From the NCBI RefSeq assembly GCF_049243625.1, contig NZ_CP046975.1: DNA of 32,000 bases. One strand, given 5' to 3'. The notes beneath the pieces were generated by a model. The model did no database searches, was not told the origin of the DNA, and was given only the letters and a program-made list of their open reading frames with translations. Shown here piece after piece: positions 1-7,609 of this stretch. How positions within the stretch are numbered: position 1 is the stretch's first letter; each line of letters starts with the position of its first letter. Both the position numbers and the translations under genes were made by a program. The DNA is from Corynebacterium amycolatum. Its GTDB lineage: Bacteria; Actinomycetota; Actinomycetes; Mycobacteriales; Mycobacteriaceae.

Positions 1-121
1 CTTCGTTTCGGCCCAGCTTGGGATTTCGTACTCGAAAAACAGTCCCCATATTGCCGGCACCGATGAGAGCTTCAACCTCGTAGCCCTCAAAAATATCGCC
101 TACCTGGGGAAGATTAGTCAT
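1..121 (-). CDS. Ser/Thr protein kinase, N-terminal fragment (gene continues beyond window start)
   Basis: Absent from the ORF track because it is too short. A reverse-strand ATG at 121-119 opens the frame MTNLPQVGDIFEGYEVEALIGAGNMGTVFRVRNPKLGRNE, which stays open to position 1. It contains the Hanks-kinase glycine-rich loop G-x-G-x-x-G-x-V (GAGNMGTV). The ATG overlaps the TGA of the upstream gene (ATGA at 121-118). Confidence 0.6.
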   Translation of the reverse strand, partial: MTNLPQVGDIFEGYEVEALIGAGNMGTVFRVRNPKLGRNE

Positions 122-711
122 CGGTTCCGTTGCCCAGACCCATCGAGATTACCCACCATAATCTGAATCCCAGACTCAGAGCGGCAATCATAATTAGGCG
201 AAACTTCTTGGCATTCCATCGTCAGTGGCTGACCGTCATACTCAATCTCGATTGTCGTCTGCTTTGGCAGTGTTCCTTGCTCTTGCCGCTGTTTACTGAG
301 CGCCCGCACTACCTCGTAATATGCTTCACAGTCCATATCGGAGCCCTGGTTTGACCAGGCACTCTGCAGCATCGGGCACGTCGGATCAACGGTCGACGCT
401 AAGACCTCTGGGTCTACGAACCGATCGTCGGCAGGCGGTGCGATTGTAGTCGAGGTTGGTTCCTGATCATCGCCCACATAGTAGGACGGCGAGACTTCCA
501 CTTCGGTGCTTTCAGTGGTTTCAAACAACCCGTCGGCGTTATCCTGCTGGTTAGAGCGGAAATTTAGGATCCAGACCACCATTGCCAGGATGACGACAAC
601 CAGAATGGCGAGCACGAACAGCAGAATCTTCCGATTTCGACCATCAGTATCGGAATTTGCACCGCTGTCAATGTCATCGACGCCCGGGATTAGAGTGCGA
701 TCGTCGGTCAT
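118..711 (-). CDS. Single-pass membrane-anchored protein with Cys-containing extracytoplasmic domain (no family recognised)
   Basis: 197-aa ORF. The ATG at 711 has AAGGAG 7 nt upstream and overlaps the Hsp70 stop (TGATG). The protein has an acidic N-terminal tail and one hydrophobic helix (ILLFVLAILVVVILAMVVWIL). About 140 aa with four Cys follow. Confidence 0.7.
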   Translation of the reverse strand: MTDDRTLIPGVDDIDSGANSDTDGRNRKILLFVLAILVVVILAMVVWILNFRSNQQDNADGLFETTESTEVEVSPSYYVGDDQEPTSTTIAPPADDRFVDPEVLASTVDPTCPMLQSAWSNQGSDMDCEAYYEVVRALSKQRQEQGTLPKQTTIEIEYDGQPLTMECQEVSPNYDCRSESGIQIMVGNLDGSGQRNR

Positions 712-2330
712 CAGTTATCTCCTTGGCTGACAGAAACCTTCATCATCGTCGTGCGAGCAGCCGAAATCTCTTCCTCATTCATCACACCAATGCGCACGTG
801 GGATTCGATTGAGCGACCCGATGGAACGTGAGTGCCTTCCACGGTAATCATGCCGTCTGCTGCTACAAAGAACTTAACCTGAATTGGCTGACCCTTGGGC
901 AACGGCGGGATACCTGTCAGCATAGATTCCGATCCACTAATGATGTCATTGAGAGCGACATCTTCGGATGGAACGTCACTGGCCTGCTGATACAGCGTCA
1001 AATCTACTTCCTCTTGGCCATCAGCTACGGTCGAATACTCCCGGACCACCGGCTCAGACAGGGGAATCATGTCATTCTGGTTGACCAGATAGTCGATGTA
1101 CGGGTTGTTCAGATGATCGACAACTCGAATGCCAATCGACTTTGGCAATACATTTGCCACCTTCTTCTCCGACAGCGCGGCTAGCTGCCCGGCGTCAATC
1201 CCTGTCTCAGCCGCGATCTGCGCAATTGACTGCTGTTGGACAGCAGGGCTGGACTCAGCATTAACCACTCCCCCGAGCTTGCTGATCATCGCAGCAAGGG
1301 CAGCACCCTTAGCAACGGCTAGATCAGGCTCAACCAACAGTGGCTTCTTACCCGTCAGACGCTCCACCAGTTTGGTTACGGCGGTCATTCGCGAAGATCC
1401 ACCCACCAGGATGACCTCATCAATTGTCAGTCCCGGCTCCTTTTCCTTTGCCGTCTCCAATACACGGGTCAAAGGAATCTCCGTCTGCTCGAGCAATGGC
1501 GCCGTGACACGCTCCAAGTCTTCGCGGGTAACGGCAATCTTGGCGCGGGAACCAGAGTCACTGGCAAGTCGCACAGTGGCGCTTTCCGCATTACTCAGCG
1601 CCTCTTTACAGTTCACCGTCTGCTCATGCAACTTAGCGACGAAGGTCTCATCGTTTTCCGCCTCCTCGTCACCAGTCTGCTCAATGAATTTATCCAGGAT
1701 AAATTCACCAAGCGCCTTATCCCAGTCAGCACCGCCCAGTCGAGCATCACCGTCGGTGGCAATAACCCGGAAGGTGTTGTCAATCCCCTGCACAATCGTG
1801 GCATCGAATGTACCGCCTCCGAGGTCATACACCAGCAAGGTCTTGTCCTTTAGAGGCTGCTTGGAGTCGTAGTAGAGGGCCGCAGCAACCGGTTCTGCTA
1901 CCAGCTCCAACACATTGAAATTAGCAATCTGCCCTGCGTTGCGAGTTGCCTCGCGCTCCTTCGCACCAAAATATGCCGGCACAGTAATAACTGCCGAAAT
2001 CTCGTCGTCAGCTGCTTCGTCTGGAACCAACGAGCGCAAAATCAATGAAGAAATCTCCTCCGGGGTATACGCCTTCCCGCTGAAATTCCATTTCTTATCG
2101 GTGCCGATGCTCCGCTTCACCAGCTCGATGACGTCATTGGGGCTGAAGAGCTTCTCTTCACGTGCCAGCTTTCCGACAACGGTATTGGCCTTCGATTCAA
2201 ACCACACCACACTTGGTGTCGACAGATCTCCGTCGAGGTTTTCTTGAATGACAGGAACACCCAGTGAGTCCACGTAGGAAATTGCGCTATTGGATGTGCC
2301 CAGATCGATGCCGTAAATACGTTCAGCCAT
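711..2330 (-). CDS. Hsp70-family ATPase, DnaK paralog lacking the helical lid
   Basis: 539-aa ORF. The ATG at 2330 has AAGGAG 7 nt upstream. Hsp70 nucleotide-binding motifs are present: GIDLGTSNS, VITVPAYF, EPVAAAL, DLGGGTFD and ILVGGSSRM. An SBD-beta-like region is also present (LPKSIGI, GIPPLPKGQPIQVKFFVAADGMITV). The ORF ends about 40 aa later, so there is no lid. Confidence 0.93.
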   Translation of the reverse strand: MAERIYGIDLGTSNSAISYVDSLGVPVIQENLDGDLSTPSVVWFESKANTVVGKLAREEKLFSPNDVIELVKRSIGTDKKWNFSGKAYTPEEISSLILRSLVPDEAADDEISAVITVPAYFGAKEREATRNAGQIANFNVLELVAEPVAAALYYDSKQPLKDKTLLVYDLGGGTFDATIVQGIDNTFRVIATDGDARLGGADWDKALGEFILDKFIEQTGDEEAENDETFVAKLHEQTVNCKEALSNAESATVRLASDSGSRAKIAVTREDLERVTAPLLEQTEIPLTRVLETAKEKEPGLTIDEVILVGGSSRMTAVTKLVERLTGKKPLLVEPDLAVAKGAALAAMISKLGGVVNAESSPAVQQQSIAQIAAETGIDAGQLAALSEKKVANVLPKSIGIRVVDHLNNPYIDYLVNQNDMIPLSEPVVREYSTVADGQEEVDLTLYQQASDVPSEDVALNDIISGSESMLTGIPPLPKGQPIQVKFFVAADGMITVEGTHVPSGRSIESHVRIGVMNEEEISAARTTMMKVSVSQGDN

Positions 2331-2445
2331 GATTTTTCTCCTTATTCTGAAATCTGTTGGATTCTTGACTTCTTTTGCCGTGTCAGCGCTCTAGTTGTGT
2401 GCTGGCCGGACTCGAGCTGTGCTCTGTTCAGACTCGAGTTTTGGC

Positions 2446-3345
2446 CTAGTTGCCGCTGTGCCGGTACACCGTGACCGGCGCCTTGGCCACCACAATTGGA
2501 CTGGTAGAACTGGTGAAGGTGTAGTAGTGCGAGATTCGTCGTGATGGCGCCAGCGTGCGGTGCAGCGCGGGGTTATCCGAATCCGCGAATTTGGTACGAC
2601 GGTGAATTGAAGAATCAAAGGCATCGCCCACCTTCGCCTCTGTAATTGCCACTCCCATGGACTGAAGCGCATCTGCGATCGAGTCCTGCAGGAAATCCAG
2701 GGTCGAATACAGGTCACTGCCATCAGTTTCGGTAGTTTCTTCGAGCCGCGAAAGGTCAGCGCAAATCCCGTCATGGATGGCCGCCAACTTTTCCGCCAGC
2801 GGCATCAACTGGGCGTACCAACGACGATCAGTCAGCGCTTCCAACTCTTCACTTTGAGAGCGCAATACTGCGTTCATTGTGTCCAGCCGTGTTTGAATCA
2901 AATCCAACTGCTTTACGACGTTCCCGGCCGCAACACCTGCGGTACTTTCAGCATCCGTTTCTGGGAGCTCTTCCACTGTCGCGGGAGGAAAATCCTGCTG
3001 GGCTGGAACTCCTTCCGCGGTGTCTTCATCATGGCCAAACTCGGCACCACCAAATTCAACACCGTCAAATTCGACGTTCTCAACCTTGGACCATGCAGCT
3101 TCGTCGGTGTCTAGTTTTGGATCTCCGGAATACTCGACCGGCTCCTGACCTGTGGTATCACCATTGTCGACCGTGCCCCGGGGGCCGAAGGACTCATCAA
3201 AATTCGGCAGCGGGGCGAAATTATGCGCTCCACCGAAGTCAACCTCCGGATACTTAGGATCTCGTTCCTGATACTCATCAGCACGACCGTCTGAATGTTT
3301 AACCGACCTTTTGTTTTCATCCTTTTTGTTATTAAAGAACCCCAT
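2446..3345 (-). CDS. GrpE-like nucleotide exchange factor with long acidic N-terminal region
   Basis: I prefer the ATG at 3345 (AGGGGAAGG ends 9 nt upstream) over the ORF-track TTG at 3390; this gives 299 aa. The C-terminal half resembles GrpE. It has a long helix (VVKQLDLIQTRLDTMNAVLRSQSEELEALTDR), then GVAITEAKVGDAFDSSIH (compare GrpE G-x-x-x-I-x-x-x-G-x-x-FD-x-x-x-H), and a terminal beta segment PIVVAKAPVTVYR. Confidence 0.8.
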   Translation of the reverse strand: MGFFNNKKDENKRSVKHSDGRADEYQERDPKYPEVDFGGAHNFAPLPNFDESFGPRGTVDNGDTTGQEPVEYSGDPKLDTDEAAWSKVENVEFDGVEFGGAEFGHDEDTAEGVPAQQDFPPATVEELPETDAESTAGVAAGNVVKQLDLIQTRLDTMNAVLRSQSEELEALTDRRWYAQLMPLAEKLAAIHDGICADLSRLEETTETDGSDLYSTLDFLQDSIADALQSMGVAITEAKVGDAFDSSIHRRTKFADSDNPALHRTLAPSRRISHYYTFTSSTSPIVVAKAPVTVYRHSGN

Positions 3346-4633
3346 TTTTATATTCCTTCCCCTTAGCGAATAGATAGGCAATCGACACAAATGTAATGAT
3401 AAATATAGAAAATAGAACCCATCCTAATTCATAGAAATTATCATTTATAACCCCCATGGCAATGAAATATACGATTCCAAAAACAGCAATCCATCGTTTT
3501 GCCACTCGCTTCTTTACCAACGCCCACAAGATACCGACAAAAATAGCCAGCACCGGTACAGCAATAAATCCATTACCCTCCTGCATGAACTGCACTATTA
3601 AACCGAGCACAACAAATGGAGAAAGAAATCGTAATAACTCCTTGGCAATCGCATCCCCTTCACCGGCATGGGGCGTCTTAAAATCCGATTTTCCCCTTCC
3701 GGTATCAGCCTTCAGGACATCGTCAGGATTGACGTTTTGAAGAACGCGATTCTCAATTGTTGAATCGGAACTAGAACAGTAGGCTCCCTCAGCAATTTGC
3801 AATTCTTTACGAAGTCTCATTGGGTCCAGCGACGTTCCGTCGTTAAGCAGACCGAAAGTATGTCGAGTCACTAAATCCGCTGGATCATCGACTGCTTGCA
3901 ACCTTCGAATAAAACCGGTGCGGGTTTCAGCCTCTGGCGAACCGGTACGAAAGTTCGCACCGATGGATTTAGTTGCACTCTTCAGCATGTCGCTATCGAT
4001 TGGCTTGCCGTCAATAAAGCCTTCGGACTGTTCACGAAAACCGCTCGCAATGACGTCTGCAATCGACCGAATGTCGGTATTTGCACTACTGGCCTCATCA
4101 AAGGCCGCCCAGACTCGTTTCTCCGCGTTGTTCGTCGGATCAGTCTCAATTTCCTGGCTATCTTCAACGTCGACGTATTCACGGAGCTCCATGCGGTTAG
4201 ACGTTGGAACCAATATCCGATCGAAGAACTCTTCAAGCCCGTGCTCGGTAATCGCTTTTCCGCTGCCCTTTGCATACGGCTTCAAGAACCCCTCTTTAAC
4301 TGCCTTCATCTGCACATCAGTGAAGAAGTACTGAGGACGCTGTACTCGTTTGAGAACAAGTCGAAAAGAAACACCGAACTTCTTTCGCACTGCGTCGACA
4401 AAATCTTCGGTGTGCAGCTCATCGATAATGTCCAGTGCGCGCTGGGACTGCTTACCGAAGAACAACAGGTCTCGAATTAAACGGACACGCGCTTCCCAAA
4501 AATCCGAGGAAGAGGCATCTCCGCCCATGGGAATGTCAGCAATCAGCTGAGCTAACTTGGCGCCCGTTGGCACTGCGCCTGGTGAAAATAAGTTTTCAGC
4601 TAGGTTGTCTCGAACTGCGGGATTCAGACTCAC
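3332..4633 (-). CDS. Hypothetical protein: ~340-aa cytoplasmic region plus C-terminal 3-4 transmembrane helices (no family recognised)
   Basis: 433-aa ORF. The GTG at 4633 has CAGGAG 5 nt upstream and forms a GTGA overlap with the upstream stop. C-terminal hydrophobic helices are FVVLGLIVQF, FIAVPVLAIFVGILWALV, WIAVFGIVYFIAMGVI and LGWVLFSIFIITFVSIAYLF. The 3' end is very AT-rich. Confidence 0.8.
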   Translation of the reverse strand: MSLNPAVRDNLAENLFSPGAVPTGAKLAQLIADIPMGGDASSSDFWEARVRLIRDLLFFGKQSQRALDIIDELHTEDFVDAVRKKFGVSFRLVLKRVQRPQYFFTDVQMKAVKEGFLKPYAKGSGKAITEHGLEEFFDRILVPTSNRMELREYVDVEDSQEIETDPTNNAEKRVWAAFDEASSANTDIRSIADVIASGFREQSEGFIDGKPIDSDMLKSATKSIGANFRTGSPEAETRTGFIRRLQAVDDPADLVTRHTFGLLNDGTSLDPMRLRKELQIAEGAYCSSSDSTIENRVLQNVNPDDVLKADTGRGKSDFKTPHAGEGDAIAKELLRFLSPFVVLGLIVQFMQEGNGFIAVPVLAIFVGILWALVKKRVAKRWIAVFGIVYFIAMGVINDNFYELGWVLFSIFIITFVSIAYLFAKGKEYKNGVL

Positions 4634-5388
4634 ATCTGCTCCTGAATCTCACTGATGCGAACACGCTGTTCTGGAGATAGGCCTGTCATAAACCGCCTGG
4701 CGGGATCTACTGCGATAAGCCATCCGGGGTCTACATGCTCCGGCAACAGTCGAATCATTGCCCGAGCAGGGCGTCCCGAATCAAGCGCGGAGACAGTTGT
4801 CAGAGTCTCTCCGTTGACGTTGGTGTCCTCTCGTTCTTCAAGCTCATAGGCAGTGCCGTACGTGGAAAGCGCCTGCTTCATCTCTTCAAACGCCGCGGCA
4901 GTGTTGTAGTCGAATGCGGCGCGAGCGTAGATGTATTCCACTAGGACTACGAGAGCGAAAAGGATTAATGCTTCGAGCGAAATAAGGACGCTTTTAGACA
5001 TAAGCGATGCTGCGGTGACTGCCAGCACCGTGATAATGAGGCCGGGAATCCAACTAGTCTGATTTCGCAAGAACCACATCGCAAACCCCATGGCGAATGG
5101 AATCAACATCGCCGTATCTGGATATGGTCCACTATTGATGGATTCCAAAATTCCGCCAATTATGAATCCGGCGATAATGAGTACGACTCGAAACATCCAG
5201 GGTGCCCACCAAACAAAAAATGGCGGAATGATACGACCTTCTTGATCTACACCAACACGGTTTGGAATAATTCCTTGATCCTCCAAATCACCGCGCCAAC
5301 CTTTAGTACGATCTGGAACACCCTTCACAATATCTGTGGTTTTTGAGAAGTAGCTTTTGGCCACATCTTTCAGCTGTTGGAGGTTCAT
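4630..5388 (-). CDS. Hypothetical four-helix integral membrane protein (no family recognised), first gene of the operon
   Basis: 252-aa ORF. The ATG at 5388 has GAGGGAAAG upstream. Four hydrophobic segments lie between residues ~55 and ~165, followed by a hydrophilic C-terminal ~85 aa. Confidence 0.8.
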   Translation of the reverse strand: MNLQQLKDVAKSYFSKTTDIVKGVPDRTKGWRGDLEDQGIIPNRVGVDQEGRIIPPFFVWWAPWMFRVVLIIAGFIIGGILESINSGPYPDTAMLIPFAMGFAMWFLRNQTSWIPGLIITVLAVTAASLMSKSVLISLEALILFALVVLVEYIYARAAFDYNTAAAFEEMKQALSTYGTAYELEEREDTNVNGETLTTVSALDSGRPARAMIRLLPEHVDPGWLIAVDPARRFMTGLSPEQRVRISEIQEQM

Positions 5389-5580
5389 TAAACGGTTCTT
5401 TCCCTCAATCCTTTGTCCAACGATTAATTCGCTGAACCCGACAGGATTTAGTTAAACCTGCACGGGTAGTGAAAGTCACCGGGAGAACTCCCGTACCGCT
5501 TCTGAGGCCTCCGCTATAGCGTCGTCAAGCAGATGAAGAAAACGCTTATTCGGCGCTTAACTCGGAGGTTTTTAACGCCC

Positions 5581-6330
5581 ATGTCATCCCAGTTTCATTC
5601 AAAGCACGTTTTGGCTGCGGCAGCCGCCGCGACTGCCCTGACCCTGATTGGCTGCTCAGGTATGCCCACTAACAACGCTGCCCCGGAGTCCCCCGCAGTG
5701 GTGACAGTTACAGAAACGTCCCCTGCTTCTGATGCACAATCCGAGACCCCTAGCTCGACTGAGAGTTCGACCGAGTCGGAAGATCCAGAACAGGAATATG
5801 CCAACAGTTCGCAGGATAAGAATTCTCCCAACAGCGAACTTTCGGATTCGGACGATGACTCTGGTGTAGTAACGCTGAACAGCTCGATGGAGCTGACCAA
5901 AATTGGCGGCATGGAGCCTGGCAGCGCCAAGCGCCAAAACGTCAAGATTGACGCAACTGCTCACCAAAAAGAATTGGGCGGCTTCGACACTGCTCGGATC
6001 ACGTTTCCTTTCGAGGGGGCCAATAGCCTGTTGACCTATCCCCTGGTTGATGGCGAAGCAAACGTCAGGTTGCTGTGGAATTTCAGCCAGACCGGAGGAA
6101 CTGAAACCTGCGAAAACAAGGTGGAGGTCTACGATGCCGAAGGCAAGCCGACTGCAAGTGCCAGCGCAGGTGTGACTGGACAACATACTCCTTGCCAAAT
6201 CGTTCGCCGGTTTGGGGAGAAGGCCTACGCAACGTTTACAGGACCCGGTGAATACATCGTTGCTGTGACAGCCCAGCAACCGGGATTCGAACCCATCACA
6301 ATTGCACAGAAAGTAAAGGTAGTCGGATAA
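5581..6330 (+). CDS. Putative lipoprotein with Ser/Glu/Thr-rich linker
   Basis: The ORF is open from 5533, but the ATG at 5581 has GGAGG 12 nt upstream. That start gives a typical lipoprotein signal peptide, MSSQFHSKHVLAAAAAATALTLIGC, with lipobox L-I-G-C. A low-complexity S/E/T/D linker follows, then a ~150-aa domain with two Cys. Confidence 0.75.
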   Translation: MSSQFHSKHVLAAAAAATALTLIGCSGMPTNNAAPESPAVVTVTETSPASDAQSETPSSTESSTESEDPEQEYANSSQDKNSPNSELSDSDDDSGVVTLNSSMELTKIGGMEPGSAKRQNVKIDATAHQKELGGFDTARITFPFEGANSLLTYPLVDGEANVRLLWNFSQTGGTETCENKVEVYDAEGKPTASASAGVTGQHTPCQIVRRFGEKAYATFTGPGEYIVAVTAQQPGFEPITIAQKVKVVG

Positions 6331-6332
6331 AA

Positions 6333-7040
6333 ATGAGCACTCACGAACCCATCGATCCGTGGAATAGCAACCAGTCGGGCACTTCCGAGAAAGTGTCGGA
6401 GAGAGCTTTCGGCACTAAGTCCGGAAAGAGTAAGCCATTGACGTTGCCGCTCATCCTTGGCGCAGTCGGAGTGATTGTTGCCGGCGCGGCAGGTTTTGCC
6501 ATGGGCGGTAAGAATGCTGAGTCCGAACTTGCAAGCGCGAATGAAGAGATTTACTCGTTGCAACAGCAGGCAGAGGAGCGGGAAAGCGAGCTGCAAACAA
6601 AGATTGATGAGCTGGAGGACAAGAACTCGAAAACTCATCGCGAGAGCCTCAAGTCCGACCAAGCTGCCGCAGCCGCTTATAACTACAAAAAGGCGCTCGA
6701 CTGGCTGAACGTCTGCGATGCTCGCGACTACATGCCCGCAGAAACAGGGGCGCAACAGACTAGTTGGGGCTCCCTAGGCGTTGGCTGCTCGTACGAGTTC
6801 GAAAATCCCGACGGGGAGATCATCATTCTAGTTAGCGGAGAAAGTAGTGACGACAAGACAGGGAAATTAACCGACGGCTACTTAAAATCAATCATCCACA
6901 ATGATGATTATCTTCGGCTCAATGTGTGGGTCTCTGACTCTGGGCCATGGGCCGACGCAGAGGAAAAGGCCACAGATATTGCCGAAAAGGTCAGTAATGC
7001 CGCTGAGCTCAATAAGAAACCGGACACTGAAGAACAATAA
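6333..7040 (+). CDS. Membrane-anchored coiled-coil protein (hypothetical)
   Basis: 235-aa ORF starting 2 nt after the lipoprotein stop. It has one hydrophobic helix (LTLPLILGAVGVIVAGAAGFAMG) and a charged heptad-like segment (EEIYSLQQQAEERESELQTKIDELEDK). The C-terminal domain has two Cys. Confidence 0.75.
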   Translation: MSTHEPIDPWNSNQSGTSEKVSERAFGTKSGKSKPLTLPLILGAVGVIVAGAAGFAMGGKNAESELASANEEIYSLQQQAEERESELQTKIDELEDKNSKTHRESLKSDQAAAAAYNYKKALDWLNVCDARDYMPAETGAQQTSWGSLGVGCSYEFENPDGEIIILVSGESSDDKTGKLTDGYLKSIIHNDDYLRLNVWVSDSGPWADAEEKATDIAEKVSNAAELNKKPDTEEQ

Positions 7041-7061
7041 ATAGCGTCCCTGCCATAAACG

Positions 7062-7101
7062 CCCATGAACCCCAGCTCACTAGTGAGCTGGGGTTCATGG
7101 G
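7062..7101. terminator. Perfect 19-bp inverted repeat between convergent genes
   Basis: cccatgaaccccagctcac (7062-7080), then ta, then gtgagctggggttcatggg (7083-7101). It starts 22 nt after the stop at 7040. There is no clear T-tract, as is common for actinobacterial terminators. Confidence 0.6.
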
Positions 7102-7148
7102 TTACGTGGGGCCGATAATTCACAAAATCTACGGCGCCGATTAGAAGA

Positions 7149-7421
7149 CTAATTGTTCACACGGTCATCGTCACGATCATCATCCGTGTCATCAACGTCA
7201 TCGCGATCATCGTCCAGCTCCTCAGTCGACGTCACCGTAGTGGTCTGGACTGGAGTCGTATCGGATAGGTTCGCCCTTCGCCACCGAGTCGAGGGCGCAG
7301 CTGGATTAGAACACGTTTCAGGAGCTTTCCCCAAAAGAATCAGCTCCAAACCAGAACCCTCCCCGGCTAAGGTCAGCACCCATTGAGCTGCGAAAGAGAA
7401 CTGATACTTGACCATCTTCAC
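7149..7421 (-). CDS. Possible small protein with poly-acidic C-terminal tail (uncertain)
   Basis: 90-aa ORF. GTG at 7421 (GAGG 8 nt upstream) or ATG at 7415. The C-terminus is ELDDDRDDVDDTDDDRDDDRVNN. No homology recognised, and an equally long antisense ORF exists. Confidence 0.3.
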   Translation of the reverse strand: MKMVKYQFSFAAQWVLTLAGEGSGLELILLGKAPETCSNPAAPSTRWRRANLSDTTPVQTTTVTSTEELDDDRDDVDDTDDDRDDDRVNN

Positions 7422-7462
7422 TGGTCACGCCTCATATCTTCACAACTATTCGTTTCTGATAA

Positions 7463-7475
7463 AAAATTTTGCAAA
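7463..7475. promoter_or_regulatory. RamB-like operator candidate upstream of the acyl-CoA synthetase gene
   Basis: AAAATTTTGCAAA matches 12 of 13 positions of the Corynebacterium glutamicum RamB box A(A/G)AACTTTGCAAA, recalled from the literature. It lies in the AT-rich intergenic region about 135 nt upstream of the start at 7610. Confidence 0.25.
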
Positions 7476-7609
7476 AAGGCGCACAAAAGTGACCTAGGAC
7501 ACTTATTCTTACTGTAAAAGAAACTAAATCGGCAGTCCTACCGATGAGGTTTCGCCTGATTAGGCCTCTCCGAAGACCACAGGACATGAACCACGGAAGA
7601 TGAGTGACT

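Follow-up and report, generated by a model that had tools for sequence, protein, structure and literature searches.

The locus described here raises the question of whether an Hsp70 gene that is bracketed by genes for membrane proteins and followed by a Ser/Thr kinase gene marks a dedicated chaperone system, as a sequence-only reading had proposed, or a fortuitous set of neighbors. We addressed this question using a window of 32,000 nucleotides from the Corynebacterium amycolatum chromosome (NZ_CP046975.1), the backbone of which reads folP-panC-lysS...clpC, together with related loci in Corynebacterium and other actinomycetes.

Organization of the operon

All six minus-strand genes proposed for the first 5,388 nucleotides of the window are present as open reading frames (Table 1), and start/stop overlaps at four of the five junctions support the view that they form a translationally coupled operon. 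Thus, the sequence ATGTGA places the GTG start of gene 2 at 4633 over the TGA stop of gene 1 (4632-4630), giving a GTGA overlap, and the ATG of gene 3 at 3345 lies 14 nt inside gene 2, which ends with TAA at 3334-3332. In addition, TGATG at 713-709 links the Hsp70 stop to the start of the 197-aa gene, and ATGA at 121-118 links the stop of the latter gene to the kinase start, both being read directly in the sequence. Ribosome-binding sites precede the first five starts (GAGGGAAAG, CAGGAG, AGGGGAAGG, AAGGAG and AAGGAG, in order), but the kinase start has no clear one, and so the earlier claim of a Shine-Dalgarno sequence at every start holds for five of the six genes. The sole junction without an overlap is the spacer between the GrpE-like and Hsp70 genes, which folds with an energy of -30.4 kcal/mol (z = -1.76) and lacks a T-run; a terminator search called no site there or at any other junction of the operon, and an Rfam search of the spacer gave no match.

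The identities assigned to the six products stand: genes 1 and 2 encode orphan membrane proteins, and these are followed by a GrpE-like factor, a lidless Hsp70, a Cys-containing protein with a membrane anchor and a Hanks-type kinase, although only 40 kinase codons lie within the window. In C. amycolatum assemblies encoding an identical Hsp70 (L001-L006), the DNA beyond the window edge encodes a kinase of 531 residues and then a co-oriented seventh gene, for a 266-aa protein. The number and order of the genes were correct for the window, but the operon extends past its edge. At the other end, the divergent intergenic region presumably holds the promoters of the operon and of the lipoprotein gene on the opposite strand; it contains one weak inverted repeat only, and promoter-like matches across it are no commoner than in shuffled sequence.

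Table 1. Coordinates of the operon and adjacent features in the window
Feature	Coordinates	Strand	Description
Gene 1 (TM1), 252-aa polytopic membrane protein	4630..5388	-	Open reading frame and hydropathy
Gene 2, 433-aa protein	3332..4633	-	GTG start over gene 1 stop (GTGA)
Allelic cassette inside gene 2	3385..3726	-	Membrane-spanning region, about residues 301-420
Gene 3, 299-aa GrpE homolog	2446..3345	-	ATG at 3345; 14-nt overlap with gene 2
GrpE-like/Hsp70 spacer, 115 nt, untranslated	2331..2445	-	Small hairpin and AAGGAG ribosome-binding site
Gene 4, 539-aa specialized Hsp70	711..2330	-	PF00012, E = 1.8e-88
Gene 5, 197-aa protein	118..711	-	Start overlaps Hsp70 stop (TGATG)
Gene 6, receptor Ser/Thr kinase, 5' end, 40 codons	1..121	-	Runs off the window
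Divergent intergenic region, 144 nt	5389..5532	.	Separates gene 1 from the divergent lipoprotein gene
Divergent gene, 265-aa lipoprotein	5533..6330	+	Lipobox LIGC
Second divergent gene, 235-aa membrane-anchored coiled-coil protein	6333..7040	+	2-Cys C-terminal domain

A lidless Hsp70 with its own GrpE

The Hsp70 consists of a nucleotide-binding domain (NBD, residues 4-347), an insert of about 40 residues and a beta substrate-binding domain (SBD-beta, 387-522), and the alpha-helical lid is absent, as had been proposed: alignment with PDB structures leaves about 23 residues past DnaK position 507, compared with 132 in DnaK itself. When residues are mapped to E. coli DnaK, the catalytic positions K70, E171, D194, T199 and D201 are retained, whereas the J-domain contacts are changed (R167E, N170A, T173V and Q378A) and the interdomain linker VLLLD is replaced. 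The kept catalytic residues, the loss of R167, N170, T173 and Q378, the altered linker, the insert and the missing lid are common to all family members sampled, and residue mapping shows that E. coli HscC does not have this set of traits. In DnaK, R167 and Q378 are bonded by D35 of the HPD motif (PMC8215388). We conclude that the C. amycolatum Hsp70, predicted to be ATPase-competent, lacks both the lid and the residues on which a J-domain would dock. Moreover, the reported absence of an HPD motif from the operon extends to every protein of the five loci scanned among the six in Corynebacterium (all except L020). The contention that this is not a canonical dnaK operon is also borne out by the profile score of 302 bits, which compares with DnaK equivalog cut-offs of 648 and 822 and falls below the HscA equivalog cut-off as well; the PGAP label is only "Hsp70 family protein".

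The product of gene 3, which precedes the Hsp70 gene as claimed, has an acidic, disordered N-terminal tail rich in Phe, Gly and Asp (residues ~1-140) followed by the long helix and C-terminal beta domain of GrpE. Pfam detects nothing in this sequence alone, and as a single query it matches Geobacillus kaustophilus GrpE (4ani) with E = 0.28, but a profile of four family members aligns with the same structure over nearly its full length (E = 1e-7) and with Thermus thermophilus GrpE (E = 0.011). PF01025 is detected in the relatives of gene 3 from L007, L015 and L017. The GrpE-like assignment can therefore be strengthened, the 299-aa protein being a true GrpE homolog. As a product of the coupled operon, the Hsp70 is probably co-translated with its own nucleotide-exchange factor, TM1 and the 433-aa protein.

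Two rapidly diverging membrane proteins

By hydropathy, TM1 has about four transmembrane (TM) helices within residues ~53-160. It is conserved in two other places, an N-terminal motif that reads DLEDQGIIP...PPFxVWWAPW and a C-terminal domain, predicted to be cytosolic, with the sequence GRPxRAMIRxLP...PGWLIAxDPARRFMTG. It has no match in Pfam, NCBIfam, PADLOC or PHROG, a word-based search recovered only two homologs, and the AF2 model is unusable (pLDDT 44); homologs are nevertheless encoded at the equivalent position in five other Corynebacterium loci. The 433-aa protein comprises an all-alpha domain predicted to be cytosolic (residues 1 to ~265), a disordered linker and about four C-terminal TM helices, its most conserved stretch being residues 166-262 (EKRVW...IDGxPID...RTGSPEAE...TRHT). 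An exhaustive profile search of 1.84 billion representative proteins gave 13 matches. Residues 1-260 are modeled by AF2 with pLDDT values of 70-88, but a fold search of PDB and BFVD (E < 0.001) and a sequence search of PDB both gave no match. The orphan status proposed for the two proteins is thus upheld by profile searches for both and by the structure search for the 433-aa protein, none of which yielded a family or fold.

Identity between lineages is 21-40% for TM1 and 25-44% for the 433-aa protein, compared with 55-80% for Hsp70, and both membrane proteins appear to be fast-evolving and confined, among the databases searched, to a subclade of Corynebacterium. Divergence is seen even within the species. 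Relative to C. amycolatum SK46 (L012), the 433-aa protein is 75% identical overall while Hsp70 is 99% identical; residues 1-300 and 421-433 are 87-100% identical, and residues 301-420 are 20-57% identical. The blastn alignment breaks exactly at 3385-3726, with near-identical flanks, which indicates that the TM region has been replaced as a cassette within C. amycolatum.

Ectoproteins, receptor kinase and FHA-like partner

The 197-aa protein has a single N-terminal TM anchor (residues 23-55), and its C-terminal domain, which contains 4 Cys, is predicted to lie outside the cytoplasm; family searches gave nothing past weak, TM-driven matches. It is the least conserved member of the operon: among the lineages compared, a homolog (56% identity) is found only in L014, and a 76-aa open reading frame of C. 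sphenisci resembles its N-terminus. On the opposite strand, the lipoprotein has a linker rich in Ser, Thr and Glu and a C-terminal domain rich in beta structure, its model matches being only weak lipoprotein ones; of the four other lineages compared, three encode a homolog at the equivalent divergent position (L014, 50%; C. pelargi, 31%; C. sphenisci, 29%). The 235-aa protein, with weak coiled-coil-type family matches only, is strongly dimorphic, showing 68-74% identity among C. amycolatum assemblies in which Hsp70 is 99-100% identical.

The full kinase (L001, 12210-13805; Pkinase E = 1.5e-31) carries the motifs GAGNMG, ALK, HGDVKPSN, DFG and APE, a TM helix at about residues 294-320 and a Cys-containing ectodomain of about 210 residues. 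Receptor Ser/Thr kinases paired with FHA-domain proteins are familiar in actinobacteria, examples being PknH-EmbR, PknB-FhaA and PknG/PknB-GarA. The operon resembles these pairs in that a one-TM Hanks-type kinase with an ectodomain is followed by a protein with an FHA-like N-terminus (GR..D...HR...G.W..N). Although a Pfam search of gene 7 gave no match, its 13 sub-threshold PDB matches include four distinct FHA domains (Rv1747, GarA, EmbR and 1uht) aligned to the same region, the first three being its best natural matches. The differences are that the FHA matches remain below significance (E-values 0.4-1.5), that the canonical S-R-x-H reads H-R-x-x, and that the kinase has HGD in place of HRD and no PASTA or other known sensor domain. 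A helix-turn-helix (HTH) reading of gene 7 rests on a pattern, with an hhalign probability of 3.5%.

Conservation and inheritance of the locus

A census of the neighborhoods of Hsp70 homologs shows that the partners recur in relatives more than chance would explain, so that the earlier proposal survives its own condition that the genes be syntenic elsewhere. The order TM1-433-GrpE-Hsp70 is kept in six lineages, represented by L001 and the window, L014, L009 (C. pelargi), L010, L011 (C. sphenisci) and L020, and the operon-bearing subclade comprises C. amycolatum, C. pelargi, C. pseudopelargi, C. sphenisci and their relatives. The kinase and its FHA-like partner are present in five of the six loci, that is, in every locus that extends far enough, but at positions that shift between lineages; six of the seven kinase genes in these loci are followed by a 266-like protein (230-266 aa). 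The six-gene unit proposed earlier therefore reduces to a conserved four-gene core, with the 197-aa gene in only one other lineage, while the gene for the FHA-like protein and a small DUF4236 gene near the operon, both outside the window, are conserved. In some C. amycolatum strains a DUF1266 gene also lies downstream, at a distance of about 8.5 kb.

The suggestion that the locus sits in low-GC, probably acquired DNA is correct as to composition, with a GC content of 0.47-0.55 over positions 1-7500 versus about 0.58-0.62 in the rest of the window, but not as to acquisition. The same chromosomal site (acyl-CoA dehydrogenases / Metallophos ... AMP-binding / lysS / clpC) carries the locus in at least six lineages of Corynebacterium, and the GC content of the locus is below that of the flanks in all five lineages measured; it is therefore old and vertically inherited in the clade rather than a recent island. 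The site is fixed in every C. amycolatum assembly inspected and in sister lineages, a pattern that suggests a core function particular to these lineages rather than a mobile defence island.

Relationship to predicted GAP1-N2/DO-GTPase conflict systems

The statement that no system of this composition has been described proves true of the Corynebacterium partner set but not of the Hsp70-GrpE pair, which has already been described computationally (PMC7159879). Theme 2 of the actinobacterial GAP1-N2 GTPase-centric conflict systems includes an Hsp70 and GrpE arm (Kaur, Burroughs, Iyer & Aravind, eLife 2020, PMC7159879, section 29), and for systems of this type both variants that contain a kinase (theme 3) and a role close to the membrane have been noted (PMC7159879). 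A literature search found no experimental work on GAP1-N2 systems, which are computational predictions. In agreement with theme 2, four of the five non-Corynebacterium actinomycete relatives that we sampled encode Hsp70 followed by FN3/SaeA, DO-GTPase2, GAP1 (N2, M, C) and DO-GTPase2. In three of these four GAP1-linked loci, Pfam detects a GrpE gene directly upstream that overlaps or nearly abuts the Hsp70 start; none is called in Actinoplanes (L016). These actinobacterial Hsp70s (about 540-555 aa) belong to the same subfamily as that of C. amycolatum (41-45% identity), being lidless, with the same insert between NBD and SBD and the same loss of R167, N170, T173 and Q378.

The Corynebacterium loci differ in that the GAP1 protein, DO-GTPase and FN3-repeat protein are absent, two orphan polytopic membrane proteins standing ahead of GrpE instead, and in that the kinase partner is FHA-like rather than PP2C and vWA. 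A weak colinear hhalign match between the N-terminal domains of the 433-aa and FN3 proteins (P = 0.0066) was not confirmed by hmmsearch. In a neighbor-joining tree the Hsp70 family forms one clade without DnaK or HscC. Within it the Corynebacterium proteins form a sister group to the GAP1-linked ones and do not branch from among them, so the tree gives no support for derivation via GTPase loss. The operon is real, and its combination of Hsp70/GrpE with a receptor kinase and a unique pair of membrane proteins is new to the literature.

Possible functions of the operon

Our preferred interpretation, to which we give somewhat less than even odds, is that the operon encodes a specialized, J-independent Hsp70 machine acting on a membrane complex under kinase control, as an envelope-surveillance or conflict-type switch. 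Hsp70 would bind the TM1/433 complex at a segment exposed to the cytosol, for which the strongly conserved residues 166-262 of the 433-aa protein are the best candidate. Because the J-interface is lost, we propose that hydrolysis is triggered by this membrane partner and not by a J-protein. GrpE would reset the cycle, possibly through its long, substrate-like acidic tail, and in this way the ATP/ADP cycle of Hsp70 would gate how the membrane complex is assembled or which conformation it adopts. The kinase may sense an extracytoplasmic cue via its Cys-containing ectodomain, perhaps joined by the anchored or lipidated 197-, 265- and 235-aa proteins, and the signal would be written as phospho-Thr and read by the FHA-like/HTH-like product of gene 7. 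The role is the least certain step, and could be defence or envelope maintenance. A surveillance or conflict-type switch is favored by analogy, because in other actinomycetes the same Hsp70-GrpE module forms the chaperone arm of predicted conflict systems of the GAP1-N2/DO-GTPase type. Nevertheless, no effector domain (nuclease, pore-former or protease) is recognizable among the locus proteins, and PADLOC and PHROG searches of the locus gave no match for a defence role.

It is possible, though rather unlikely, that the operon instead encodes an envelope-maintenance chaperone analogous in function to E. coli HscC-DjlB/DjlC. The 433-aa protein and TM1 would then be targeting factors that tether the lidless Hsp70 to the membrane, where it would help in the insertion, quality control or turnover of membrane or secreted proteins, perhaps including the Cys-containing ectoproteins of the locus, while the kinase/FHA pair would tune the chaperone to cell-wall status, as is typical for actinobacterial Ser/Thr kinases. 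Such a role is consistent with its fixed, vertically inherited site between lysS and clpC and with the prediction that several locus products are envelope proteins bearing an anchor or a lipid. HscC, with DjlB/DjlC, has been proposed to chaperone transmembrane proteins (PMC8215388), and it too is a short, specialized Hsp70 (556 versus 539 aa) encoded beside membrane-anchored partners. These form small overlapping gene pairs, DjlB and DjlC following small DUF1266 genes (YbeR/YbeU) with 4-nt overlaps, and the 433-aa protein shares with DjlB/DjlC the layout of a cytosolic domain and a C-terminal TM anchor. The likeness does not extend to sequence, however, since hhalign finds no homology of the 433-aa protein or TM1 to DjlB/DjlC or DUF1266 (probability at most 0.2%). 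HscC is only 30% identical to the C. amycolatum Hsp70 and falls in a separate clade, has a lid remnant (83 residues past position 507) and retains R167, N170 and T173; moreover, it works with J-domains and is believed to dispense with GrpE (PMC8215388), which the Corynebacterium operon keeps. The distribution of the 433-aa protein is also extremely narrow, and the very rapid divergence of the partners and the within-species cassette swap would be unusual for a housekeeping envelope function.

We consider it improbable that the operon is a dedicated biogenesis route for its own ectoproteins, in which Hsp70/GrpE and TM1/433, the latter as a private insertase or dock, would hold the 197-, 265- and 235-aa proteins and the kinase ectodomain and hand them over for export or disulfide-dependent folding. 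In the neighborhood, four to five products indeed carry a single anchor or a lipid and contain paired Cys residues, and their genes are co-transcribed or diverge from the same intergenic region. The ectoproteins are, however, the least conserved products: the 197- and 235-aa proteins each occur in just one further lineage, and none is encoded beside the core in L010 or L020; since the core persists in their absence, they are not its obligatory clients.

That these are simply unrelated lineage-specific genes beside a spare Hsp70/GrpE pair is very improbable: the gap between the GrpE-like and Hsp70 genes and the mobile position of the kinase module would suit this explanation, but the four overlapping junctions, the lack of a terminator-like site at any junction and the retention of the four-gene order in six lineages, although the membrane proteins are only 21-44% identical, argue against it. 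Finally, a housekeeping dnaK-grpE operon in an unusual arrangement is extremely improbable, for although the canonical dnaK-grpE-dnaJ(-hspR) operon likewise encodes an Hsp70 with NBD and SBD-beta folds and intact catalytic residues and a bona fide GrpE, here GrpE comes first, the lid, J-interface, HPD motif, DnaJ gene and HspR gene are all absent, the operon is narrowly distributed, the Hsp70 scores below the DnaK model cut-offs and carries only a generic PGAP label, and its closest relatives lie in GAP1/GTPase loci.

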